Positions 1 to 32,050 of a stretch of DNA of 44,897 bases are shown here, piece after piece; within the stretch, counting starts at the first letter, position 1, and each line of letters opens with the position of its first letter. The translations under genes and the position numbers were made by a program. A model generated the notes under the pieces. That model made no database searches and was not told where the DNA came from. It saw nothing but the letters and a program-made list of their open reading frames with translations. The DNA comes from a virus. Taxonomy: Duplodnaviria > Heunggongvirae > Uroviricota > Caudoviricetes. The stretch lies in IMG/VR virus record IMGVR_UViG_2872688378_000003. One strand, given 5' to 3'.

Positions 1-378
1 ATGGACGAACAGTGGGGCTATGTCGGTGCTAAATCGCGCCAGCGCTGGCTGTTTTACGCGTATGACAGGCTCCGGAAGACGGTTGTTGCGCACGTATTCG
101 GTGAACGCACTATGGCGACGCTGGGGCGTCTTATGAGCCTGCTGTCACCCTTTGACGTGGTGATATGGATGACGGATGGCTGGCCGCTGTATGAATCCCG
201 CCTGAAGGGAAAGCTGCACGTAATCAGCAAGCGATATACGCAGCGAATTGAGCGGCATAACCTGAATCTGAGGCAGCACCTGGCACGGCTGGGACGGAAG
301 TCGCTGTCGTTCTCAAAATCGGTGGAGCTGCATGACAAAGTCATCGGGCATTATCTGAACATAAAACACTATCAATAA
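1..378 (+). CDS. insB: IS1 transposase InsB, C-terminal part (5' end outside window)
   Basis: ORF translation ...[31 protein letters not shown] matches the IS1 InsB C-terminus as I recall it. Confidence 0.85.
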
Positions 379-393
379 GTTGGAGTCATTACC
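1..393 (+). mobile_element. IS1 insertion sequence, right-hand portion (window begins inside the element)
   Basis: insB frame runs to stop at 376-378 and is followed by the IS1 terminal inverted repeat ...GTTGGAGTCATTACC ending at 393; recognised from memory of IS1. Confidence 0.85.
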
Positions 394-686
394 ACGAGCT
401 CAACGGGGAAAGACTGAGAGAACCTAACGAAGTTTTTAAACGTTTAGGTCGAGCAATAAGATATAATTTTCAAGTGGACGATGCAAAATTTAGACGCGAT
501 AATGTAAAAGAAATAATTTCTAATTTATTCGCTAACAAAGTTGACGTTGACCATCCTGAAAATAAATACAAAGACTTTAAGGATCTCGAAGATAACGTTG
601 AAAAAAGACTTCAAAATCGCCAGGCGAAATATCAAAATGAAATTAATCAACTATCTGCGCCAGGTGTTAATTTTGATGATATTTAA
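394..686 (+). pseudogene. 3' fragment of a host ORF interrupted by IS1 (possibly yfdF)
   Basis: Frame is open from the IS1 boundary (no stop between 394 and 686), protein-like translation ...ELNGERLREPNEVFKRLGRAIRYNFQVDDAKF...; ORF track start at 474 is a GTG; gene identity inferred only from K-12 gene order (yfdF precedes mlaA). Confidence 0.4.
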
Positions 687-825
687 AATTATTTTTCCAG
701 TTTTTTGATTTTTCAACGCCTGAATATCGGAAATAGTCAGTGACGAACATCAGTATTTTTACATCATTACGTCCGGGTCATTGTCGGTTTATCTCCTTTT
801 ACTTGTGGTAATTGAGGGATAACAA

Positions 826-858
826 CAAAAAAGGTGAGTTTTGCGACTCACCTTTTTT
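826..858. terminator. Bidirectional rho-independent terminator between the truncated ORF and mlaA
   Basis: A-run, stem GGTGAGT / ACTCACC with 6-nt loop, then T-run (aaaaaaaGGTGAGTtttgcgACTCACCtttttt). Confidence 0.7.
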
Positions 859-867
859 ATTTGTTTC

Positions 868-1623
868 TTATTCAGAATCAATATCTTTTAAATCATCCTG
901 AATCGCTTGTGCGTTCGGATTTTCCTGCGGTTTGAGTTCGCCGCCATTAGCGATGAAATCATGACGCTGGAAGTACGCTTCGCGCACCATAATATAAGGA
1001 TCGGACGACTGACGCAGCAGACCATCGGAATCCAACAACTGCGCACGAGTTTCTATCCCTTCAAGCGTCCATTTACCCACAGACATCGGCCAGGTCAGCC
1101 AGGAAAGAACCGGGTAAAGACCATCCGCCATATCACCACCGTCATCACGCAGCGTGAAGCTACCGTAGAACGGTAACTGAACGTAAGGCCCATAACCCAC
1201 GCCATAATGACCAAGCGTACTACCGAAGCGGTGAGGTTCAGTCCGTTGCAGTTTCGGGTTCGCCATCCCTGCAACATCAATAAAACCGCCCATCCCCAAA
1301 ATGGTGTTCAGGAAAAAGCGGGTAAAGTGGACCATCCCCTGATAAGGGTCGCCCTGCAAGAAGTAGTTAACCATCACCGCAGGTTCTTCAAGGTTGCCAG
1401 TAAAGTTGCTCAAACCGTTACGCGCCGGTTGCGGAACATAATCACGCCAGGCGACAGCGACCGGTCGAACAATATACGGGTCTAATACATTGAAGTTGAA
1501 GTTGTACATGGTGCGGTTGAACCCTTCTAACGGGTCAGAACGCCCTTGCTGATCTGTACCGGAACTCGCACACCCCACCAGAAGCGTAGTTCCCAGAGCA
1601 AGCGCCGACAGGCGAAGCTTCAT
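868..1623 (-). CDS. mlaA: Phospholipid-binding outer-membrane lipoprotein MlaA (VacJ)
   Basis: 251-aa ORF with lipoprotein signal (LLVGCAS) and sequence matching MlaA/VacJ from memory; expected neighbour of yfdC-argW. Confidence 0.85.
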   Translation of the reverse strand: MKLRLSALALGTTLLVGCASSGTDQQGRSDPLEGFNRTMYNFNFNVLDPYIVRPVAVAWRDYVPQPARNGLSNFTGNLEEPAVMVNYFLQGDPYQGMVHFTRFFLNTILGMGGFIDVAGMANPKLQRTEPHRFGSTLGHYGVGYGPYVQLPFYGSFTLRDDGGDMADGLYPVLSWLTWPMSVGKWTLEGIETRAQLLDSDGLLRQSSDPYIMVREAYFQRHDFIANGGELKPQENPNAQAIQDDLKDIDSE

Positions 1624-1916
1624 AAATGTCTCCCTGTTTTTTTATGGCTTATGCAGTTTGCCATCCATGACGGAACGATACCGTATCCGCCTGTTTAGGT
1701 GTGGGCGATTGTAACAGCACGTCAACTGATGTCCAGACGCCCTGATTTGCTGATTTGATCATAGCCTGGTAATCGCCGCCCTGTAGGCTACTTGATTCTA
1801 TAGAAACAGAAAAAGGCAAACGCAGCCTTTTCTACATTTTCAGAGTAACTCCCGTCAGTTGCGAGCAAAAAAGCCGCTACGCTTTAGCTATACGTGCTAA
1901 TTCAAGAGAAGAGACC

Positions 1917-2849
1917 ATGGACAACGACAAAATTGATCAACACAGCGACGAAATTGAAGTTGAGAGCGAAGAAAAAGAGCGCGGCAAAAAAATAGAAATA
2001 GATGAAGACCGACTCCCCTCCCGGGCGATGGCAATTCATGAGCATATCCGCCAGGATGGTGAAAAAGAGCTGGAACGCGACGCAGTGGCGCTACTGTGGT
2101 CAGCCATTGCGGCGGGTCTGTCGATGGGCGCTTCGTTACTGGCAAAAGGGATATTTCAAGTCGAACTGGAAGGTGTGCCGGGCAGCTTCTTGCTGGAGAA
2201 TCTCGGTTATACCTTTGGTTTTATTATCGTCATTATGGCCCGCCAGCAATTATTTACCGAAAATACCGTGACTGCGGTACTACCCGTCATGCAAAAACCG
2301 ACAATGAGCAACGTCGGCTTACTTATACGGTTATGGGGCGTCGTGCTGCTGGGTAATATTCTCGGGACAGGTATTGCGGCGTGGGCATTTGAATATATGC
2401 CTATCTTCAATGAAGAAACTCGCGATGCATTTGTCAAAATCGGCATGGATGTGATGAAGAACACCCCCAGCGAGATGTTTGCCAACGCGATCATTTCCGG
2501 CTGGCTGATCGCCACTATGGTTTGGATGTTTCCTGCAGCGGGTGCGGCAAAGATTGTGGTGATTATATTGATGACCTGGCTTATTGCCCTGGGTGACACC
2601 ACCCATATCGTGGTCGGTTCTGTTGAAATCCTCTATCTGGTGTTTAACGGTACGCTGCACTGGAGCGATTTCATCTGGCCCTTCGCACTACCTACTTTAG
2701 CGGGGAACATCTGCGGCGGCACCTTTATCTTCGCGTTAATGAGTCATGCACAGATTCGTAACGACATGAGCAATAAGCGTAAAGCAGAAGCACGCCAAAA
2801 AGCAGAACGTGCGGAAAACATTAAGAAAAATTATAAAAACCCGGCATAA
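1917..2849 (+). CDS. yfdC: Formate/nitrite transporter family inner-membrane protein YfdC
   Basis: 310-aa ORF, hydrophobic multi-pass membrane protein; position immediately upstream of argW as in K-12. Confidence 0.8.
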   Translation: MDNDKIDQHSDEIEVESEEKERGKKIEIDEDRLPSRAMAIHEHIRQDGEKELERDAVALLWSAIAAGLSMGASLLAKGIFQVELEGVPGSFLLENLGYTFGFIIVIMARQQLFTENTVTAVLPVMQKPTMSNVGLLIRLWGVVLLGNILGTGIAAWAFEYMPIFNEETRDAFVKIGMDVMKNTPSEMFANAIISGWLIATMVWMFPAAGAAKIVVIILMTWLIALGDTTHIVVGSVEILYLVFNGTLHWSDFIWPFALPTLAGNICGGTFIFALMSHAQIRNDMSNKRKAEARQKAERAENIKKNYKNPA

Positions 2850-2924
2850 ATGGCGAGGGTTTAAGCAATCGAGCGGCAGCGTACTTACCCCGCACTCCAT
2901 TAGCGGGTATACTCATGCCGCATT

Positions 2925-2999
2925 GTCCTCTTAGTTAAATGGATATAACGAGCCCCTCCTAAGGGCTAATTGCAGGTTCGATTCCTGCAGGGGACACCA
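2925..2999 (+). tRNA. argW: tRNA-Arg (anticodon CCU), argW; prophage integration site (attL side)
   Basis: 75-nt sequence GTCCTCTTAGTTAAATGG...GGTTCGATTCCTGCAGGGGACACCA with T-loop GGTTCGATTCC, CCA end and anticodon loop CTCCTAA. Confidence 0.95.
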
Positions 3000-3124
3000 T
3001 TTATCAGTTCGCTCCCATCCGTACCAGTCCGCAAAATCCCCTGAATATCAAGCCTTCCGTAGATTCACAGTTCGTCATGGTTCGCGTCAGATCGTTGACA
3101 GCCGCACTCCATGACGGGTAAAAA

Positions 3125-4318
3125 GTGGATAAAATAATTTTACCCACCGGATTTTTACCCATGCTCACCGTTAAGCAGATTGAAGCAGCAAAGCCGAAAG
3201 AAAAACCATACCGCCTACTCGATGGTAATGGCCTGTACCTTTATGTCCCTGTGTCAGGGAAAAAGGTATGGCAGCTTCGCTACAAGATTGACGGTAAGGA
3301 GAAAATCCTGACCGTCGGAAAATATCCGCTAATGACTTTGCAGGAGGCAAGAGATAAAGCATGGACCGCGAGGAAAGACATCTCGGTTGGCATCGATCCG
3401 GTAAAAGCGAAAAAGGCTTCGTCTAACAACAATTCCTTTAGTGCCATTTACAAGGAATGGTACGAGCACAAGAAGCAAGTCTGGTCAGTAGGCTATGCAA
3501 CTGAACTTGCCAAAATGTTTGATGACGACATTTTACCCATCATCGGCGGTCTTGAGATTCAGGATATTGAGCCGATGCAACTGCTGGAAGTAATCCGCAG
3601 ATTTGAAGATCGCGGTGCAATGGAGCGAGCCAACAAAGCCCGCAGAAGATGCGGCGAGGTTTTCCGTTACGCTATTGTCACCGGCAGGGCTAAATATAAC
3701 CCGGCACCTGACCTTGCTGACGCCATGAAGGGGTACCGCAAGAAGAACTTCCCGTTTCTTCCTGCAGACCAGATCCCGGCATTCAATAAAGCACTGGCAA
3801 CATTTTCAGGAAGTATCGTATCGCTCATTGCCACCAAGGTTTTACGCTACACTGCCCTAAGAACGAAAGAGCTTCGTTCCATGCTATGGAAGAACGTCGA
3901 TTTTGAAAACAGGATTATCACCATCGACGCCAGTGTGATGAAAGGACGCAAAATTCATGTGGTCCCGATGTCAGACCAGGTGGTTGAACTTCTCACTACG
4001 TTAAGCTCCATCACCAAACCAGTATCAGAGTTTGTTTTTGCCGGGCGCAACGATAAGAAGAAGCCAATCTGCGAGAATGCGGTACTGCTTGTGATCAAAC
4101 AAATCGGCTATGAAGGTCTGGAAAGCGGTCACGGATTCAGGCATGAATTCAGCACGATTATGAACGAGCACGAATGGCCTGCTGACGCTATTGAAGTGCA
4201 ACTGGCACATGCCAACGGCGGATCTGTGCGCGGGATTTACAACCATGCTCAGTATCTCGATAAGCGCAGAGAAATGATGCAATGGTGGGCGGACTGGCTT
4301 GATGAAAAGGTGGAGTGA
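3125..4318 (+). CDS. intS: Tyrosine integrase, P4/IntS family (prophage integrase)
   Basis: Translation contains the characteristic N-terminal MLTVKQIEAAKPKEKPYRLLDGNGLYLYV motif and C-terminal catalytic region (...HGFRHEF...YNHAQYL); likely true start is the ATG at 3161; lies directly after argW. Confidence 0.9.
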   Translation: MDKIILPTGFLPMLTVKQIEAAKPKEKPYRLLDGNGLYLYVPVSGKKVWQLRYKIDGKEKILTVGKYPLMTLQEARDKAWTARKDISVGIDPVKAKKASSNNNSFSAIYKEWYEHKKQVWSVGYATELAKMFDDDILPIIGGLEIQDIEPMQLLEVIRRFEDRGAMERANKARRRCGEVFRYAIVTGRAKYNPAPDLADAMKGYRKKNFPFLPADQIPAFNKALATFSGSIVSLIATKVLRYTALRTKELRSMLWKNVDFENRIITIDASVMKGRKIHVVPMSDQVVELLTTLSSITKPVSEFVFAGRNDKKKPICENAVLLVIKQIGYEGLESGHGFRHEFSTIMNEHEWPADAIEVQLAHANGGSVRGIYNHAQYLDKRREMMQWWADWLDEKVE

Positions 4319-4405
4319 TCCGCCTTAACCACTATCGAAGTGCACAAAGCCTTGCAATCCAGTGCAAAGCTTTGTGTGTATCAGTTTTGTCCTGTGCGCC
4401 GGATA

Positions 4406-4852
4406 TCAATTGGCCTGCTCCCCCGGAGGCGTAGGCCAGACGGGATTTGATGTATCAACGCGCATCAGCAAGACCCGGTATTTTTTCCATTCAGATAACG
4501 CGGCGGTTTCTTCTACCGTCGCGATTTCCGCATCAAAAGCATCCTGTCTCCAGACTATTTCCTTATCAGCCATAGAACGCAATACCGTTCTTTTCTGTTC
4601 AGCCTGAATAATCTGTTGTTCAGCGGAGAGTGGCGGGATATCAATCCACGCAGGATTACCATTTTTATCAGCCCCCAGCGTTTTGCCTTCTGGCGCTACG
4701 CCTGTGTAAATTGCCATTGTTTCATCATCAACATCAGCGCCATTTTCAGGCCATGAACCGGCGCTGATATATACATCTTTTAGTGCTTCCGGATAGAAAG
4801 AGCCTTTATAAAATTTATTCATTCTTAATACCCCAACGCGATAAAACAACAA
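4406..4852 (-). CDS. Tail fibre assembly protein (Tfa)
   Basis: C-terminal ...SEWKKYRVLLMRVDTSNPVWPTPP resembles the conserved Tfa C-domain; likely start is the internal ATG at 4822 just after the tail fibre stop. Confidence 0.75.
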   Translation of the reverse strand: MLFYRVGVLRMNKFYKGSFYPEALKDVYISAGSWPENGADVDDETMAIYTGVAPEGKTLGADKNGNPAWIDIPPLSAEQQIIQAEQKRTVLRSMADKEIVWRQDAFDAEIATVEETAALSEWKKYRVLLMRVDTSNPVWPTPPGEQAN

Positions 4853-5742
4853 TCTTCGGTGCCCTCTCCGGATGGCGACCAGTTCTGAATACTGATATGC
4901 GTTCTGCTGGCAATACGCACATTCATCGCGGCATTGTAGCCAGATGTTCCACGGTTTCCGGTCGCAAATAAGCCTGCATAGGGAAAAGCAAATGGTAAGG
5001 CATATCCAGTATCAGCTCCCTTTTGTGTTGCCACCGTTCCCCACTGCAACATAAGTTTCACCGGGTTTCCTGTCGTCGCAATGCATGGAATGTAGATGTA
5101 ACCATTACCTGACATCATTGACCTGAAGCTGTCTAAATCCAGTAACTTCGAGGGATTATCTGCTCCAACATCTCGTGTTGCAGCGGTCCCTAACTGGAGC
5201 GCATTTCGGAAGGCTGATACATCAGAAATATCAGATCCATTAGCCGATTTCTGCATAGCTCCGGAGGCTTTATTTATCGTTTCTCCCAAACCAAGGTATG
5301 TGAGAATGTCTGCAATAGTATTTTTCCCGATAATGTCACGGCCTACAGAAGTTAAATCAGTCTGCGCTGCTGTATCATTTCCAGTGAAATACGGGAGTTT
5401 ATTTGCACCGGTTTCGAGCCCAGCCAATGCCGTCAGCGTGGCATCAAGGGCCTGGAAATCCTTCCCAAAAGCGGTTCCCATTTTGGAGATAAACCCGTTC
5501 AGGTCACCATCATCAAGCACGTCCAGCCCACTTTTGTTGGCTGTGTACTGCGCAAGCGCTGCCGCAATAAAGCTGGCCTGTCGAATAACCTTATTGACTT
5601 GCGCACTGGATGCTTTCCCTGCTGTAAATCCGGATAAAAGCGCAGGCAACGCTTCCCATTCCTCCTGCGACATAACATTGGCATTTCGATCCGTTGCAAA
5701 CGCTTTAAAGTCATTTTTCGCCATCAGAGTAATACTCCCCAT
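4825..5742 (-). CDS. Tail fibre protein
   Basis: Precedes tfa; N-terminal region MSQEEWEALP... typical of Mu/P2-type fibre N-termini; likely start at 5724 (ATGA overlap with upstream gene). Confidence 0.7.
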   Translation of the reverse strand: MGSITLMAKNDFKAFATDRNANVMSQEEWEALPALLSGFTAGKASSAQVNKVIRQASFIAAALAQYTANKSGLDVLDDGDLNGFISKMGTAFGKDFQALDATLTALAGLETGANKLPYFTGNDTAAQTDLTSVGRDIIGKNTIADILTYLGLGETINKASGAMQKSANGSDISDVSAFRNALQLGTAATRDVGADNPSKLLDLDSFRSMMSGNGYIYIPCIATTGNPVKLMLQWGTVATQKGADTGYALPFAFPYAGLFATGNRGTSGYNAAMNVRIASRTHISIQNWSPSGEGTEDCCFIALGY

Positions 5743-11621: not shown

Positions 11622-12208
11622 TAGCCGCCTCCCAGTAATGACGCCACGTTACCCGTGATGCTTTTCAGCAGTGAAGTATCTGGAGGCTTTGTGGTTTTGT
11701 TACCGCTATTCTGTACCGCCGACGTGCTGGCCCCTTCCTTCATGTTGGTTTTATCCGCGACGGTAATCTGCTGTGTCCGGGAGATAATGACCTCCCTCAG
11801 GGTGAGGACGGCGGACAGGACGTTTTCGGTTGTCTTGTCCGTCGTCACTTCCAGCGCCCGGATCAACATGTTGCTGTACAGCCGTTTACCGGTTACCACA
11901 TCGAAGGGGATACGGCTTTCCTGCAGATCCAGTAGCTCCTGATACGTCTGCTGAGGACTCAGGCCGAGCAGGCTGGTAGCCGTCAGATTACTGGCAAAAT
12001 CCAGCAATGCGCCGCCACCGGCGAAACCAACCTCCATCACCACTTCTGACGGTTTTTTATAGGCATGATCAGCGACAGCGGCCCCGACCTCTACCGGATG
12101 CTCTGTTATTTCAAGCATATCTGTATGCTTCTCTGAAATAACAACACTGGGAACAATCATTCCTATTTTTCTGCTCTGCTGATGAAAAAGTGTAGAGAGA
12201 ATATCCAC
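11621..12208 (-). CDS. Tail protein (DNA circulation-like position, 195 aa)
   Basis: ORF immediately downstream of tape measure with overlapping stop/start. Confidence 0.5.
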   Translation of the reverse strand: MDILSTLFHQQSRKIGMIVPSVVISEKHTDMLEITEHPVEVGAAVADHAYKKPSEVVMEVGFAGGGALLDFASNLTATSLLGLSPQQTYQELLDLQESRIPFDVVTGKRLYSNMLIRALEVTTDKTTENVLSAVLTLREVIISRTQQITVADKTNMKEGASTSAVQNSGNKTTKPPDTSLLKSITGNVASLLGGG

Positions 12209-14217
12209 TAACCCACCCTCACCTGATTACTTCGCATGACCTGAGCATTTGCAGACTGTTGCCGACGTGCAACCTCATTACCGACAGCGTGCGGATCTCC
12301 GCCACCGTAAATGTGGTAAGTATTTTGCTGGTTAACCTCTGTCATTTTGCCACTAATTCCCGCCACGGCAGCCTTATTAATCAGCTCTCGAGAATAGATA
12401 TTTCTTCCATTCTCATGCTGGATAATGCTGCTCATCAATGCTGACATGGTTTGCGGATCGCTCATATTCAGGGCAGCCCGGGGATCCACTCCCAGTCGTT
12501 GCGATACAGCCCTGATATACGCAGTTGTGTTGTTATTATCAGACGCAGGTGCCCAGGTAGAGATAATTTTCTCCACACTGTTTATTCCCCGTCCTGCGTA
12601 CAGCATTAACTGACGAGCAAGAGCCCGTAATCCATCAAAAGCAGTTTCAAATCTGGCAAATCGCCCGCCCGGGCGTTCAAGAGAAGCCCCTGCCTGACCA
12701 GCAAAATTAAGGTTTCCCGGATTGTTATTCCGTTCTCCTCGTTTCGTAGCCTGTGCATATTGTTCCGGCTCATCATCACCAAACCAGCCGCGTACCGTCC
12801 GGCCCACACTGCGGGGATCGAATCCCCAGTGCTCTTTAATCCAGTCGGCAGTACTGTTAGCGCTGTCTGTAACCATCGGCATCGCTGACGGATTTTCGCT
12901 GCCCTGATTAAGTATCTGTTTGCCGATGATGACGGCATCAGCCCAGCGGCCATCTTTGATAGCGTTGAGCAGGTCGGCGATCATGTTCAGCATTTTGCTG
13001 AATTCGCCCATCTGGTCGATGAAGTTGCTGAAATCCCACTTCAGGGACCATGATTTGGGGTCAATATTGAGCAGTTTCGCCAGCGCTTTCGCCAGTTCAT
13101 TAACAGACCCTTTCAGGTCACGAACCATCTTCAGCGCGGCATCGACCTCCGGCTTCCACTTGCCCCAGTCAATCAGGCTGTCGCCGCCTTCCTTCCAGGT
13201 CTGATAGTCCTCCCACAGAAGGGCAATCCCCGCCGCCAGCGCGGTAATGAGGCCAATCGGCGACATCCAGAACGTACTGTTCAGAATGCGCAGCGCAATC
13301 GTCAGCGCGCCAAACAGCGAGATGAGCTCCCGCGTTTGCTTATCCAGCGATTGCCACCAGGTGATAAGGCTGGATGTTCCCTCAATTAGCCTGAAGAACA
13401 GCCGCCCGATGATGTCTCCGATCGCCAGAATGCCTTTTATGGCTTTCGTCAGGGTCTGCTCGATGCGCGGGAAGTTATCGAGGATGTGGCGGCGCAGTGT
13501 GTCCAGCGAACCCGCCAGACCACCAGCAAGATTAGAGCCGATTTTGTCACGGGCCATGCCTGCCATCGCGCCGAACTCGCGCAGGGAGGTCATGAATTTG
13601 TTGGAGCTTCTGGCCGCCTCGTCAGCATTGAAGCCGATAGCTTTCGCCATTGCGCTGTACTGCCCGGAGAAATCACCCACACCCCGGCGCATCGCCATAA
13701 GGGTATTTTCGTCAATGCCTAGCATCTGCGCATACTGGTTAGCCCGGTAATACGGCATGCCGCTGAGCTTCTGGCCTACACCTGTAAAAATAGCGGCCAT
13801 GTCACGCATGTTACCGCTGGCATCCCGTGTCTGTACCCCCAGGCGATTCAGGAATCCTTCCGCGCCGGGATTGTTACGAACAAACCGGGAGAGGCTTTCC
13901 AGAGAGGTTCGCGCCGCGTCCACGCTGCCGCCAACCTGCGAAACCGCATAGCCAATAGACTGAATTCCCTGGACTGTCGCGCCGGTGCGCTGTGACGCCC
14001 GGTAAAGATTATCCAGGCCGGAGGCGATCTTAGCCGTGAAGGCCACCACGGACAGCGCAGCTCCTTCAACGGCCAGTCCCATTTTGATGGCATTTGCAGT
14101 TGTACCGGCGAGGACAGAACCGAACTTTTTCGCTCCTGCATCATCCACACTGAAGCCAAGCGAGACGAGGAAATCTTTAATAGTTTCAGCGTTCATTATC
14201 CTCTCTCCATTTCTCAA
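12208..14217 (-). CDS. Tail tape measure protein
   Basis: Long ORF after tail chaperone; likely true start ATG at 14196 (MNAETIKDFL...) with SD GGAGAGAGG; ORF track start at 14217 is TTG. Confidence 0.8.
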   Translation of the reverse strand: MRNGERIMNAETIKDFLVSLGFSVDDAGAKKFGSVLAGTTANAIKMGLAVEGAALSVVAFTAKIASGLDNLYRASQRTGATVQGIQSIGYAVSQVGGSVDAARTSLESLSRFVRNNPGAEGFLNRLGVQTRDASGNMRDMAAIFTGVGQKLSGMPYYRANQYAQMLGIDENTLMAMRRGVGDFSGQYSAMAKAIGFNADEAARSSNKFMTSLREFGAMAGMARDKIGSNLAGGLAGSLDTLRRHILDNFPRIEQTLTKAIKGILAIGDIIGRLFFRLIEGTSSLITWWQSLDKQTRELISLFGALTIALRILNSTFWMSPIGLITALAAGIALLWEDYQTWKEGGDSLIDWGKWKPEVDAALKMVRDLKGSVNELAKALAKLLNIDPKSWSLKWDFSNFIDQMGEFSKMLNMIADLLNAIKDGRWADAVIIGKQILNQGSENPSAMPMVTDSANSTADWIKEHWGFDPRSVGRTVRGWFGDDEPEQYAQATKRGERNNNPGNLNFAGQAGASLERPGGRFARFETAFDGLRALARQLMLYAGRGINSVEKIISTWAPASDNNNTTAYIRAVSQRLGVDPRAALNMSDPQTMSALMSSIIQHENGRNIYSRELINKAAVAGISGKMTEVNQQNTYHIYGGGDPHAVGNEVARRQQSANAQVMRSNQVRVG

Positions 14218-14826
14218 TGCGCCGCTGGTTATCCGCTTTTACCGCCAGATGGTCATTCAAGAGAGCAATGTCGTACAAATCGACAGAGCCATCTTTAAGT
14301 GCTGTATAAGGAATTAACCCGGCGTCAACCGGATTGAGAAGGTAAGACAGCCCGTCCGGCAGGCTGTTAAACGTCAGCCCTGTTGCAGGCTCTGCGTCGT
14401 GCTGGTAAGGGGTGTAGGCAAAAAATTTCCCAGCGAATCGGCGACCACCCGCGCCACCAGATGCAGCATGACCAGCAAGTCAATATCATCAAACATCAGT
14501 TCGCCCTGGGTAAATACCGGAACCCATCCGTCCATATGACGCCGCGATACCACCGCAAGACAGGGATGAATAATCGCACTGGTGTCATCTTCGGTCAGGG
14601 AAGACAGTTCCTCAGCGATACGCGGGAGCATGGTTTCAAACACCGGTTTTAACTGCTCGAATTTCACGGTGTCGATTTTGCCATCAGCAGGCAAACGGGA
14701 GCGAATGCTCCCGAAATCTGACATCATTCCTGCCAGCACAGGCAGAAGTTTGCGGGTCACTTTCAGCTGATCAAAAACGCTGAGTTTTGCCGCGCGATAT
14801 TTCACGCCTTTGATTTCGAATTCCAT
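14186..14826 (-). CDS. Tail assembly chaperone, predicted -1 frameshift-extended product (GT-like)
   Basis: Minus-strand heptamer T_TTT_TTG (plus coords 14419-14425) near chaperone 3' end; the -1 frame is open from there to TGA at 14186-14188, filling the otherwise ORF-free 14218-14373 gap and overlapping the tape measure start. Confidence 0.5.
14374..14826 (-). CDS. Tail assembly chaperone (G-like)
   Basis: 150-aa ORF between tail tube and tape measure. Confidence 0.65.
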   Translation of the reverse strand: MEFEIKGVKYRAAKLSVFDQLKVTRKLLPVLAGMMSDFGSIRSRLPADGKIDTVKFEQLKPVFETMLPRIAEELSSLTEDDTSAIIHPCLAVVSRRHMDGWVPVFTQGELMFDDIDLLVMLHLVARVVADSLGNFLPTPLTSTTQSLQQG

Positions 14827-15280: not shown

Positions 15281-16426
15281 TTAGCGAACAACGTTAATCT
15301 GTACGTCAGCGTAATGAACCGCGCCTGCAAGTTTTATTGCAGCCTGAATCACCGGAGCCTTACGGGCTTCACGTTCTGATTGTGCCTGTTCATCCAGCGG
15401 CTGGGCGTATACGTAATAACCTTTGGGCAGCGTGTCACCTGATGACAACTGGCCAAGGTCGCCCCCGTTCCATACGCCCGGAGCAATCAGTCCATTCTGA
15501 ACGGCCTGATCCAGTGATTTTTCAACATTTGATAACAGTCGGGTAATACCGGCTTCAGTCTGGGGAACTTTCGTGGAGCTGGTATAAAGCAGGTTATAGA
15601 GGTTGGTCTGCACATAATTCTGTAACCAGTCCAGGCCGTGGCGTTCATCAAAGAAATCGCCGTTAGCCATCACTCCCTGCTGGAGGATAGCTGTATCATT
15701 CTGGTAGTACACGAACACATTGCAGTTTTTTGCATCAAGTGCCGATGCCTGGCTGACTGTCAGTGTTTCATACCCGACACCCGGCTCCTGCTTAAACTTG
15801 AGCGTAATCGCGGTATTACTGCCATTGAAATTAACCGTGAATGCCCGGCCAAATGCAGATAACGCAGCGTATTTATTACCCGATGAATACTGAATAAAAC
15901 TGCGTGAATATCCGGCGGTTTTCAGTTTTGATGCCAAATCATCGCTGGATGCAGTCTGCAGGCATTTCTCATCGCTTGTCGTAATCGCCAGAATACGGCT
16001 TACAGAAGAGGATTCGATCGCCGCAGCCACTTTCAGCCAGTCTGCATCCGGAATATCTTCATCGTCTGCAATCCCCAGCCCATACCATGAAGTATAATCG
16101 AGCATGGCATTCACAGCCTGCTCCAGCGTCTCAGTCGTGGCCTGTTCGCTGTCTCCCTTCGTTTTCACCCAACGACCAACAAAAACCTCCTGAGGTTTCG
16201 GTGATTGTGAGAAAAACACCTGCGCAGCCTTATATTCTGGTGATTCCACGCCAAAATCTTTTCCAATATCTTCCGCGGCAGAATAACGACGAATGCGCTC
16301 ACTTACCGGAATGATTGTGGACGGGCCGAGAATGAGTAATGCACCAAAATTTCGCCCTGATGCTGCACGCGGCGACATGATCACATCAACATTAACAACG
16401 TTTGATACAGGCAAGCCCTGTGCCAT
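15281..16426 (-). CDS. Tail sheath protein
   Basis: 381-aa ORF preceding tube gene; contractile-tail gene order. Confidence 0.7.
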
Positions 16427-31329: not shown

Positions 31330-31556
31330 AGGTGAGCCGTGTAGTTGAAGGTTTTTACGTCAGATTCTTTTGGGATTGGCTTGCGTTTATTTCTGGAGCG
31401 TTTCGTTGGAAGGTATTTGCAGTTTTCGCAGATGATGTCGGTGATACTTCGTCGCTGTCGTCTCATGCCGCCCTCCTGACGCCCTGCCCGATCGCCATCA
31501 ATGCCGCTTTGGATACGGTAGTAAACATCCGTCGAGGACTGATGAACGGTCGCCAA
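31290..31556 (-). CDS. ninE: NinE
   Basis: C-terminal 58 aa [58 protein letters not shown] matches lambda NinE; true start likely 31466. Confidence 0.8.
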
Positions 31557-32050
31557 ATCAGCAGCATGGAACCTTTGCTGTTTCCCTTCTTCTCCAGCCC
31601 TGTCGATGGTTCGATAAAATTAATCCGTCCATCAGTGATGATGCGAACTTCGTCAATACTCTCCAGAGCCTTGCTGAACCATCCGACTGACATATCCTCT
31701 GGCACAAGCATAACTACCGTCTGTCGCTGTTGTATGCACTGCTCAGCGGCTTTTTCCACCCACGGCCTGATATTGCTGTACGGTGGGTTATTCCAGATTG
31801 CACCGTGGCTTATCCACTCAGAATTTAGCGCGTCGTCGGCCTCAGTTAACCAGTGAGCGCACAGAGCATTTTTGTCGCTCGCTGCCGAATCCAGCCAGAA
31901 TCCAAACTCAATATCCAGTGCATCAAAAAGCCAAAGCGGCGTTTGCCAGCAGTCCTTGTCGTGTGCTGGCGTATTTGATTTGATAGTCATGCAGCCCGAT
32001 CTCCCCATCTCGCTTTCCATTCCAGAGCCAGTCGCGCTTCGTCTGACCAC
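31463..32050 (-). CDS. DNA N6-adenine methyltransferase (phage Dam-like)
   Basis: Contains catalytic motif IV NPPY (…IWNNPPYSN…); likely start at 31990 overlapping the ninB stop (ATGA). Confidence 0.7.

Follow-up and report, generated by a model that had tools for sequence, protein, structure and literature searches.

In the 44,897 nucleotides of tailed-phage DNA analysed here (the window), a tail assembly chaperone gene is followed on the minus strand by an apparent gap and then by the tape measure gene, which raises the question of whether this gap is coding and how ribosomes would enter it. A first-pass annotation of the window had proposed a probable programmed -1 frameshift, in which a T_TTT_TTG heptamer about 14 codons before the chaperone stop would lead into a -1 frame open for about 80 codons. 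Comparison with related loci indicates that in this E. coli prophage, a SEN34/Brunovirus-like myovirus, the tail assembly chaperone gene very probably carries a programmed -1 ribosomal frameshift.

The chaperone gene and the open frame beyond its stop

The tail genes around the gap, from sheath to tape measure, are as follows.

15281..16426 (-), tail sheath protein gene (Pfam DUF3383, E 5e-101; “tail sheath” in the annotation of phage SEN34)
14830..15270 (-), tail tube protein gene, directly upstream of the chaperone (Pfam PF11681, KPP10 Orf10 / tube, E 9e-61)
14374..14826 (-), tail assembly chaperone, short zero-frame product (“G”-like ORF), 150 aa (ORF and translation)
14186..14419 (-), -1 frame extension (“T”-like domain), 77 codons, from GCC 14419..14417 to TGA 14188..14186 (translation)
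12208..14196 (-), tape measure protein gene with a C-terminal lytic transglycosylase region (PHROG 2276 “tail length tape measure protein”, E 7e-281; RefSeq start)

The chaperone ORF was checked to run on the minus strand from an ATG at 14826 through 150 codons to a TGA at 14376..14374. Its product matches Phage_TAC_15 (PF21822) over residues 6-138 in Pfam (E 2e-30, 106 bits versus a gathering cut-off of 22) and PHROG 1688 “tail assembly chaperone” (E 2e-64), and RefSeq records of identical E. coli prophages use the name “phage tail assembly chaperone”. The gene order of sheath (DUF3383), tube (PF11681), chaperone (TAC; PF21822), extension and tape measure protein (TMP; PHROG 2276) places the locus between the tail tube and tape measure genes, the position expected of the G/GT type.

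No stop interrupts the -1 frame from about 14485, and beyond the heptamer the frame continues for 77 sense codons to the TGA at 14188..14186. This agrees with the claim of about 80 codons ending over the tape measure start, as the extension stop overlaps the tape measure ATG at 14196 by 11 nt, and this ATG and its Shine-Dalgarno (SD) sequence (GGAGAGAGGA, 14208..14199) fall within the end of the extension. The gap itself had been given as 156 bp, which presumes a tape measure start at TTG 14217 (-); RefSeq and comparative data favour ATG 14196 and a gap of 177 bp. The predicted long product, complement(join(14186..14419,14419..14826)), comprises 213 aa. Its -1 translation matches DUF6889 (PF21829) with an E-value of 9e-20 and 70.6 bits (gathering cut-off 23.9) across the C-terminal 39 aa, residues 173-211 of the fused product, and it also matches PHROG 4364.

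A heptamer and an open -1 frame in one sequence are not statistically remarkable, and the case made from them alone is weak. The window contains 22 copies of TTTTTTG, and 31 of its 85 ORFs are followed by a long open -1 frame after the stop, although only 3 of the 85 have an in-phase heptamer within such an overlap. In compact phage genomes an open -1 frame is common, since the next gene often sits there. A within-window null for an open -1 frame after a stop was discarded as uninformative for the same reason, neighbouring genes often occupying the frame. The decisive evidence, pointing to a frameshift, is comparative.

Coding signal in related loci

The comparison covered 79 analysable relatives from one-genome-per-species contigs, with TAC identities of 37-85%, and the tests for coding signal (stops, entropy, dN/dS and starts) were conducted on 74 distinct related loci. 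The -1 frame contained no stop codons in any of the 74, whereas the other frames averaged 4.1 and 5.3. In the extension, entropy at the third codon position was 1.38 compared to 0.73 and 0.59 at the other positions, a ratio of about two, and the median dN/dS was 0.20 at a dS of about 1.5. Variability peaks at the wobble position of the -1 frame even within the two-frame overlap, and selection therefore changes frame right after the slip site. Judged from these sequence signals, the -1 extension is real coding sequence under purifying selection; the absence of stops in 74 of 74 relatives, the low dN/dS and the DUF6889 match uphold the first-pass claim that the gap between chaperone and tape measure genes is coding.

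The dimensions of the extension are also maintained. Among the 77 relatives with an in-phase T_TTT_TTN heptamer, 75 have an extension of 76-82 codons, which in most of them ends at or a few nucleotides past the TMP start; in most relatives the tape measure ATG lies 8 nt ahead of the extension stop. In eight of eight distant phages DUF6889 is again encoded in the -1 frame, with this relationship located at the same chaperone motif, and the arrangement extends to phages of Acinetobacter, Burkholderia, Bordetella, Ralstonia and Providencia. A canonical slippery heptamer sits at the homologous LG(N/P/S)F motif in seven of these eight distant phages, with the heptamers differing from one to another; in the eighth, vB_E192a, no canonical heptamer was found at the homologous site. 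The locus is a well-sampled case in which the exact heptamer drifts while keeping the same place in the protein.

Some relatives are clearly degraded, with a truncated chaperone (L011), a truncated extension (L035) or a deletion fusing the extension to a baseplate-like ORF (L055), as would be seen if the -1 ORF were a decaying, functionless remnant in a defective prophage. However, purifying selection extends over the 74 distinct loci, and the same architecture is found in the plaque-forming or inducible phages SEN34, YP3, Mulock, Magia, vB_EcoM-606R2 and Bordetella IFTN9, making a relic extremely unlikely.

A different explanation is that DUF6889 is an independent small gene, translated with no frameshift, either from a non-canonical start of its own (CTG 14350) or by ribosomes that reinitiate once they have terminated at the chaperone stop. 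PGAP does predict a separate 54-aa “DUF6889 family protein” CDS, stand-alone DUF6889 families exist in Pfam and PHROG, and the Pfam domain comprises only the last 39-40 residues, wholly downstream of the chaperone stop. Nevertheless, a search of the 74 loci yielded no conserved ATG, GTG or TTG start for the extension and no consistent SD sequence; the first such codon is extension codon 47 in the window and codon 53 of 77 in many loci, and database entries start at three or more different arbitrary positions. In addition, the -1 coding signature reaches upstream of both the CTG and the chaperone stop, back to the slip site, and an independent gene would not explain why synonymous choice at the slippery codons, described below, is so strongly constrained. 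We regard an independent gene as very unlikely.

The probable slip site and its surroundings

The elements at and just upstream of the proposed frameshift site are listed in the order in which a ribosome would meet them.

14445..14450 (-), possible Shine-Dalgarno-like element GGGUGG (codons Arg126 CGG and Val127 GTG), role tentative, proposed from codon constraint
14419..14431 (-), compound slippery sequence G_GGA_AAT_TTT_TTG, 13 nt, within the chaperone ORF, phase verified
14431..14425 (-), heptamer G_GGA_AAT, in zero-frame phase
14428..14422 (-), heptamer A_AAT_TTT, in zero-frame phase
14425..14419 (-), heptamer T_TTT_TTG, in zero-frame X_XXY_YYZ phase

The TTG of T_TTT_TTG is chaperone codon 136, 14 codons ahead of the stop, just where the first-pass annotation had placed the heptamer; what had been missed are the two further heptamers that overlap it on its 5' side. 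Of the 79 analysable related loci, 77 carry T_TTT_TTN in phase. Use of synonymous codons at the slip site departs from background use in these loci for GGA (93% versus 9%), AAT (100% versus 37%), TTT (100% versus 53%) and TTG (99% versus 11%), counts that overstate the number of independent events because the related sequences share phylogeny. In the test for synonymous constraint, the slip-site codon columns take ranks 1, 2, 4 and 7 among the 67 columns.

T_TTT_TTG is probably not the sole usable heptamer. T_TTT_TTN is destroyed in a Salmonella locus (L021) and absent in Bordetella IFTN9, both of which keep only G_GGA_AAT, while Erwinia and Kalamiella loci lack G_GGA_AAT and A_AAT_TTT. With lineages keeping different heptamers, the one in use is ambiguous. 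One tentative reading, which we hold to be possible but not the likelier outcome, is that the 13 nt act as a compound signal, G_GGA_AAU_UUU_UUG, in which two or three overlapping heptamers each contribute and the upstream SD-like GGGUGG assists. Such a signal would offer several consecutive chances to slip and yield two long-form isoforms, with GNFF-A and GNFL-A junctions. This reading is put forward because synonymous constraint covers GGA and AAT as well as TTT and TTG, and because the subset of heptamers kept at this motif varies from lineage to lineage.

As the shift site contains a homopolymeric run, T6 at this locus and T7 in some relatives, the fusion could also arise through transcriptional slippage, with RNA polymerase adding an extra U in the U6 run so that some mRNAs would encode the fused protein in frame. 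One assembly with T7 (L173/P0001) carries a one-base insertion that yields exactly this fused protein. Efficient slippage by bacterial RNA polymerase requires about 8-9 or more A or T, against which T6 is short, and no such run exists in the -1 homologues of Bordetella (GGGAAATAC), Burkholderia (CCCTTTTAT) and Salmonella L021 (GGGAAATATTTTG). Furthermore, the GGA and AAT codons are also under selection, and these matter for tRNA re-pairing and not for a T-run. Transcriptional slippage is thus highly improbable, and ribosomal slippage on the compound site is retained as the explanation.

A downstream stimulatory RNA structure, raised as a possibility in the first-pass annotation, was ruled out. 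Single-sequence folds gave minimum free energy z-scores of -0.77 and -0.31, no better than shuffles; RNAalifold on 29 loci returned an empty consensus structure with no covariation; and no Rfam match was found at the site. The first hairpin starts about 21 nt downstream of the slip site, compared to a spacing of 5-9 nt in dnaX.

Upstream, GGGUGG at 14450..14445 lies 13, 16 and 19 nt from the three heptamers and may help the slip; a dnaX-type element would be expected about 10-14 nt 5' of the slip site. Arg126 is encoded by CGG in 47 of 64 loci compared to 7% background use, which ranks third of the 67 columns, and Val127 is encoded by GTG in 92% compared to 46% background. Some SD-like motif was found in six of the eight distant phages at varying distance, which is a weak test in GC-rich genomes.

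Known systems, predicted products and database entries

The G/GT-type tail chaperone -1 frameshift class of tailed phages is reportedly that of Xu, Hendrix & Duda 2004, and the P2 E/E+E' work is, as cited in PMC3091744, that of Christie et al. 2002 and, again, Xu, Hendrix & Duda 2004. The G/GT arrangement is known already and is ordinary in tailed phages; what is new here is an unannotated instance in this prophage. The first-pass assignment to this arrangement is borne out by gene order, a coding -1 frame with no start of its own, codon constraint at the slip site and the same relationship in distant phages. From the sequence we infer a genuine, canonical G/GT-type -1 frameshift, and with it the occurrence of frameshifting, its efficiency, the heptamer used and the functions of the domains.

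The closest annotated cases are Klebsiella phage Mulock (CPT_Mulock_014/015) and Burkholderia phage Magia (CPT_Magia_015/016), in which one CDS is annotated as “tape measure chaperone” and a joined CDS as “tape measure chaperone frameshift product”. The Mulock locus is homologous, with the same gene order, an extension 64.5% identical, an identical GGGAAATTTTTTG likewise placed at LGNF, and a product of 205 aa from the same -1 join. Magia has the same gene order and an extension 42% identical, with C_CCT_TTT at the same motif. Both joins were annotated by prediction only, and the frameshift is absent from the text of the Mulock genome announcement; the join is unannotated in the RefSeq E. coli prophage record examined, in SEN34 and in YP3.

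Among other known systems, P2 is similar to this locus in having a contractile tail, TTTTTTG near the end of the short ORF, a position beside the tape measure gene and no downstream hairpin. PMC3091744 gives P2 E/E+E' as a -1 shift on TTTTTTG without downstream structure. The P2 products are 91 and 142 aa compared to 150 and 213 aa here, where the heptamer sits in a 13-nt triple site. No homology to P2 E/E' was detectable, a Pfam scan at E<=0.01 giving only Phage_TAC_15 and DUF6889. In lambda, gpG and gpGT follow the same logic of a short and a long chaperone made from one start by -1 slippage, at a ratio of 30:1, with the shared domain binding the tape measure and the -1 domain binding the tube protein (PMC5009743). 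G_GGA_AAT here resembles the lambda G_GGA_AAG; however, lambda is a siphovirus whose G and T share no sequence similarity with the proteins at this locus, and the roles suggested below are extrapolated from it.

In Pseudomonas phage Adele (Pakpunavirus/Vandenendeviridae), the -1 frame of TAC-N/TAC-NC is uninterrupted in all alleles and the T-run motif GTTTTT is conserved (PMC12846349), an argument of the kind made here. Adele has a related virion module (tube PF11681, KPP10 Orf10) and the same “hypothetical protein” or gap between TAC and TMP, but it belongs to another phage family and uses another slippery motif. E. coli dnaX (gamma/tau) has an upstream SD-like stimulator, to which GGGUGG 13-19 nt 5' of the heptamers is a possible counterpart, but frameshifting in dnaX additionally requires a strong hairpin downstream, a feature neither present at this locus nor conserved among its relatives.

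Under the proposed mechanism, the majority of ribosomes would produce the 150-aa chaperone and terminate at 14376..14374, while a minority would slip back one base on the U-rich G_GGA_AAU_UUU_UUG (14431..14419), translate 77 more codons in the -1 frame and end at 14188..14186 with the 213-aa long form. The slip would apparently depend on the slippery sequence itself, with no downstream RNA structure. Slippage on U_UUU_UUG would create the junction ...SLGNFL-AYTPYQ..., with predicted junction peptides SLGNFLAYTPYQ and SLGNFLAYTPYQHDAEPATGLTFNSLPDGLSYLLNPVDAGLIPYTALK, whereas slippage on A_AAU_UUU or G_GGA_AAU would create ...SLGNFF-AYTPYQ..., with predicted junction peptide SLGNFFAYTPYQ. The analogy with lambda gpG/gpGT and P2 E/E+E' suggests that the N-terminal domain common to both forms would bind the tape measure protein and that the DUF6889 -1 domain would recruit the tail tube protein. 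By the same analogy, tail assembly would need a fixed ratio of short to long forms, neither of which would be in the virion. The long protein would escape virion proteomics, since chaperones do not form part of the virion.

Sequence searches found no solved-structure relatives for either domain, and an AlphaFold2 model of the P0001 long product built on a 15-sequence alignment was unusable (mean pLDDT 40.7, pTM 0.27). The extension was also considered as an internal duplicate of the middle of the chaperone, which was rejected (BLASTP E 0.15, hhalign probability 0.7%). The duplication idea had arisen from a MAFFT misalignment of a mixed set of chaperones and DUF6889 fragments.

The main value of the locus lies in annotation, and the understanding of phage tail assembly or recoding is unchanged by it. 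A search for literature on DUF6889 found no papers, and placing it as the -1 “T-like” domain of Phage_TAC_15 chaperones would give the family a function. Correcting the annotation would remove spurious small genes and supply the correct 213-aa product for engineering or modelling tails. In RefSeq/PGAP the extension appears in part as the following feature.

14186..14350 (-), stand-alone 54-aa “DUF6889 family protein” with a CTG start (RefSeq locus 3551..3715, equal to window 14350..14186)

Database DUF6889 entries range from 43 to 78 aa with inconsistent starts, M replacing different Leu residues. Other entries for the same fragment are named “NTP pyrophosphohydrolase”, a name that is unsupported; PHROG 4364 is listed as of unknown function. 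Based on the comparative evidence, we judge the CTG-initiated entries named “DUF6889 family protein” or “NTP pyrophosphohydrolase” to be fragments of the putative frameshift product. The SEN34 and YP3 records leave the extension as a gap. A near-identical region is found in 314 of 5,426 complete E. coli genomes, and all 15 of the matches listed carry the DUF6889 CDS name.

The slip site and its extended frame

The window is an E. coli prophage that adjoins tRNA-Arg(CCU) (2925..2999, plus strand) and intS. Its early genes are lambdoid and its contractile tail module is SEN34/Brunovirus-like; within this module the tail assembly chaperone is placed as follows.

Features of the chaperone locus and its tail-gene neighbours, in local gene order
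Sheath gene (DUF3383), first in order
Tube gene (PF11681, KPP10 Orf10), after the sheath
14826..14374, minus strand: chaperone ORF of 150 codons, from ATG 14826 to TGA 14376..14374, after the tube (Pfam Phage_TAC_15, E 2e-30; PHROG 1688)
14450..14445, minus strand: Shine-Dalgarno-like GGGUGG from Arg126 CGG and Val127 GTG (codons from 14451), 13-19 nt 5' of the heptamers
14431..14419, minus strand: slip site, codons 133-136 (GGA AAT TTT TTG) after a G, in zero-frame phase
14425..14419, minus strand: heptamer T_TTT_TTG, in correct X_XXY_YYZ phase
14196, minus strand: tape-measure start ATG, the RefSeq start, used by most relatives
Tape-measure gene (PHROG 2276, E 7e-281), after the chaperone and a gap

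The first-pass annotation had placed a T_TTT_TTG about 14 codons ahead of the chaperone stop, followed by some 80 open codons in the -1 frame to a TGA at 14186-14188 that overlaps the tape-measure start, and each element was recovered. The heptamer, in correct phase, is the most 3' of three that overlap in phase (G_GGA_AAT, A_AAT_TTT and T_TTT_TTG), and the -1 frame, open from about 14485, continues for 77 sense codons past it to TGA 14188..14186 (minus strand), overlapping the tape-measure gene by 11 nt. The chaperone/tape-measure gap is 177 bp and not the 156 bp given earlier, which presupposes the upstream TTG at 14217. This TTG, from the mechanical ORF list, and ATG 14196 are the two candidate tape-measure starts; the ATG is preceded by a Shine-Dalgarno sequence, GGAGAGAGGA, at 14208..14199, and in most relatives it stands 8 nt ahead of the extension stop. 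As this Shine-Dalgarno sequence and start both fall within the stretch that encodes KWREDNER, conserved at the C-terminus of the extension, conservation there is partly a nucleotide-level constraint.

Coding evidence for the -1 frame

The -1 frame is coding, as had been proposed for the gap. The last 39 residues of the 213-aa fused product match Pfam DUF6889 (E 9e-20) and PHROG 4364. Among 80 related loci sampled from one-genome-per-species contigs (chaperone identity 37-85%), 79 were analysable and 77 of these carry an in-phase T_TTT_TTN, in 75 of which the extension spans 76-82 codons, mostly ending at or a few nucleotides beyond the tape-measure start. The extension frame is free of stops in all 74 distinct sequences compared; the other two frames of this region contain means of 4.1 and 5.3 stops. 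Entropy in the extension is 1.38 at codon position 3 versus 0.73 and 0.59 at positions 1 and 2, and median pairwise dN/dS is 0.20 (dS about 1.5). Within the 14 codons read in both frames, the most variable position is the -1 wobble, which is the second position of the zero frame; the frame under selection therefore changes from zero to -1 directly 3' of the slip site, where the C-terminal end of the chaperone itself is the passenger.

RefSeq/PGAP instead lists a 54-aa "DUF6889 family protein" as a gene of its own from CTG 14350 (14186..14350, minus strand; 3551..3715 in the RefSeq E. coli locus). A separate gene was rejected on three grounds. From the upstream -1 stop as far as the conserved domain, the related loci share no conserved ATG, GTG or TTG; many have no canonical start before extension codon 53 of 77, and Shine-Dalgarno-like sequences are sporadic. 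The starts of database members are arbitrary, these being 43-78-aa fragments whose initial M substitutes different leucines (M-TLNSLPDG, M-PDGLSY, M-SYLL). Finally, conservation of the -1 peptide (A-R-T-P-R/Y-Q-R-D...) starts right at the slip site, far 5' of every annotated start. Fragment names are inconsistent, and some read "NTP pyrophosphohydrolase", a name unsupported and with no visible basis. Pfam DUF6889 and PHROG 4364 appear to be sets of frameshift-product fragments; no mention of DUF6889 was found in the literature, and the main use of this finding is to correct the annotation of both families.

Three related loci are degraded. In Izhakiella australiensis (L055) the -1 extension is 256 codons long and enters a baseplate-like ORF, the tape-measure gene apparently having been lost by deletion; in L035 the extension is cut to 37 codons, and in L011 the chaperone is cut to 47.

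Slip-site selection and the mode of shifting

Codon use at the slip site in 73 distinct loci, against the same genes; shared ancestry means that independent events are overstated
Gly133 GGA: 93% at slip site, 9% background
Asn134 AAT: 100% of Asn at slip site, 37% background
Phe135 TTT: 100% at slip site, 53% background
Leu136 TTG: 99% of Leu at slip site, 11% background

These four codons rank 1st, 2nd, 4th and 7th in deviation from background among 67 conserved-residue columns, and the nearby Val128, Ala129, Asp130 and Ser131 vary freely. Because T_TTT_TTG needs neither GGA nor AAT, yet both are constrained, the codon pattern suggests that A_AAT_TTT matters too, and perhaps also G_GGA_AAT. 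The subsets differ by lineage: Erwinia/Kalamiella loci carry T_TTT_TTG only, and a Salmonella enterica s1 locus (L021, CP191473.1) only G_GGA_AAT, as in Bordetella phage IFTN9. A break in the T-run of the Salmonella locus (GGGAAATATTTTG), some 55 nt 5' of the chaperone stop, abolishes both A_AAT_TTT and T_TTT_TTG, yet its -1 extension of 62 codons is preserved; either the site was inactivated recently by mutation, or the locus shows that G_GGA_AAT is enough by itself.

A tblastn search with the extension retrieved 39 phage records, eight of which were examined (Acinetobacter Ab105-1phi; Ralstonia PY059YO380; Burkholderia BgManors32, Magia and vB_E192a; Bordetella IFTN9; Providencia PSTCR3; Klebsiella Mulock). 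All eight encode a DUF6889-like domain in frame -1 relative to the chaperone, and seven have a slippery heptamer at the homologous LG(N/P/S)F motif (A_AAT_TTT, G_GGT_TTT/T_TTT_TTC, C_CCT_TTT, G_GGA_AAT or T_TTT_TTT); vB_E192a has no canonical heptamer at that motif. What stays constant is where in the protein the slip falls; the heptamer itself drifts. Existing records for Mulock, where GGGAAATTTTTTG is identical to that of the window, and for Magia already give homologues of the pair as joined frameshift CDSs, and the same line of comparative reasoning was published in 2025 for a related KPP10-like tail module (PMC12846349). The conserved G/GT-type arrangement named in the first-pass annotation is supported by related loci, distant phages and annotated joins; since the kind is textbook and homologous joins exist, the locus is a real, rightly interpreted further case.

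The best-supported reading of these sequences is programmed -1 ribosomal frameshifting, which would yield a short form of 150 aa and a long form of 213 aa. Production of the long form by transcriptional slippage is unlikely, as T6 is a short run for it and several homologous loci lack any homopolymer at the slip site. A 98%-identical copy (L173, 1896..1909 of a Logan SRR23924998 contig) has T7 in place of T6 (GGGAAATTTTTTTGCC), which puts chaperone and DUF6889 in frame as one 213-aa protein (P0001, 16 member sequences); no short form would be expected from it, and the extra T may be either an error made in sequencing or assembling the homopolymer or a genuine mutation.

If the chaperone works as lambda gpG/gpGT does, both of its forms would bind the tape measure through their common domain and the tube protein would be recruited by the -1 domain, with an essential short/long ratio and neither form in the virion. 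The lambda ratio is about 30:1, and the same source gives P2 an efficiency 2-3-fold higher (PMC5009743). AlphaFold2 modelled the long form too poorly for use (pLDDT 40.7), and sequence searches with either domain found no relatives of solved structure. An apparent resemblance of the extension to the middle of the chaperone was rejected as an alignment artefact.

Possible stimulators, other heptamers and flanks

A downstream stimulatory RNA structure, which the first-pass annotation had suggested looking for, is absent: folds of 96 and 181 nt did not surpass those of shuffled sequence (z -0.77 and -0.31), a 29-locus consensus fold was empty with zero covariation, and the region had no Rfam match. 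P2 E/E+E' is similar, with a reported -1 shift on the same TTTTTTG, likewise without downstream structure (PMC3091744). Upstream, by analogy with dnaX, GGGUGG could be a Shine-Dalgarno stimulator; among the relatives, whose shared ancestry inflates such counts, the rare Arg126 CGG, third among the 67 columns, is used in 73% versus 7% in background, and Val127 GTG in 92% versus 46%. The eight distant phages give a mixed picture for this element, six of them showing some Shine-Dalgarno-like motif at varying distance.

TTTTTTG occurs 22 times on both strands of the window against 13.5 expected, a count reached in 0 of 100 shuffles; terminators rich in T and intergenic regions probably account for the excess. 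Besides the chaperone, just one likely gene-strand ORF of at least 100 aa has an in-phase X_XXY_YYZ in a -1-open overlap: 31463..32050 (minus strand), with GGGAAAC and 57 codons past the stop; its -1 frame is most likely simply the next gene.

tRNA-Arg(CCU) lies beside the prophage integrase gene intS and the host genes yfdC and mlaA; this is the argW attachment site. Positions 1..393 of the window have no match in the best E. coli hits, and positions 1..5000 as a query matched tens of thousands of places, which suggests a multicopy repeat within that stretch, perhaps an insertion sequence.
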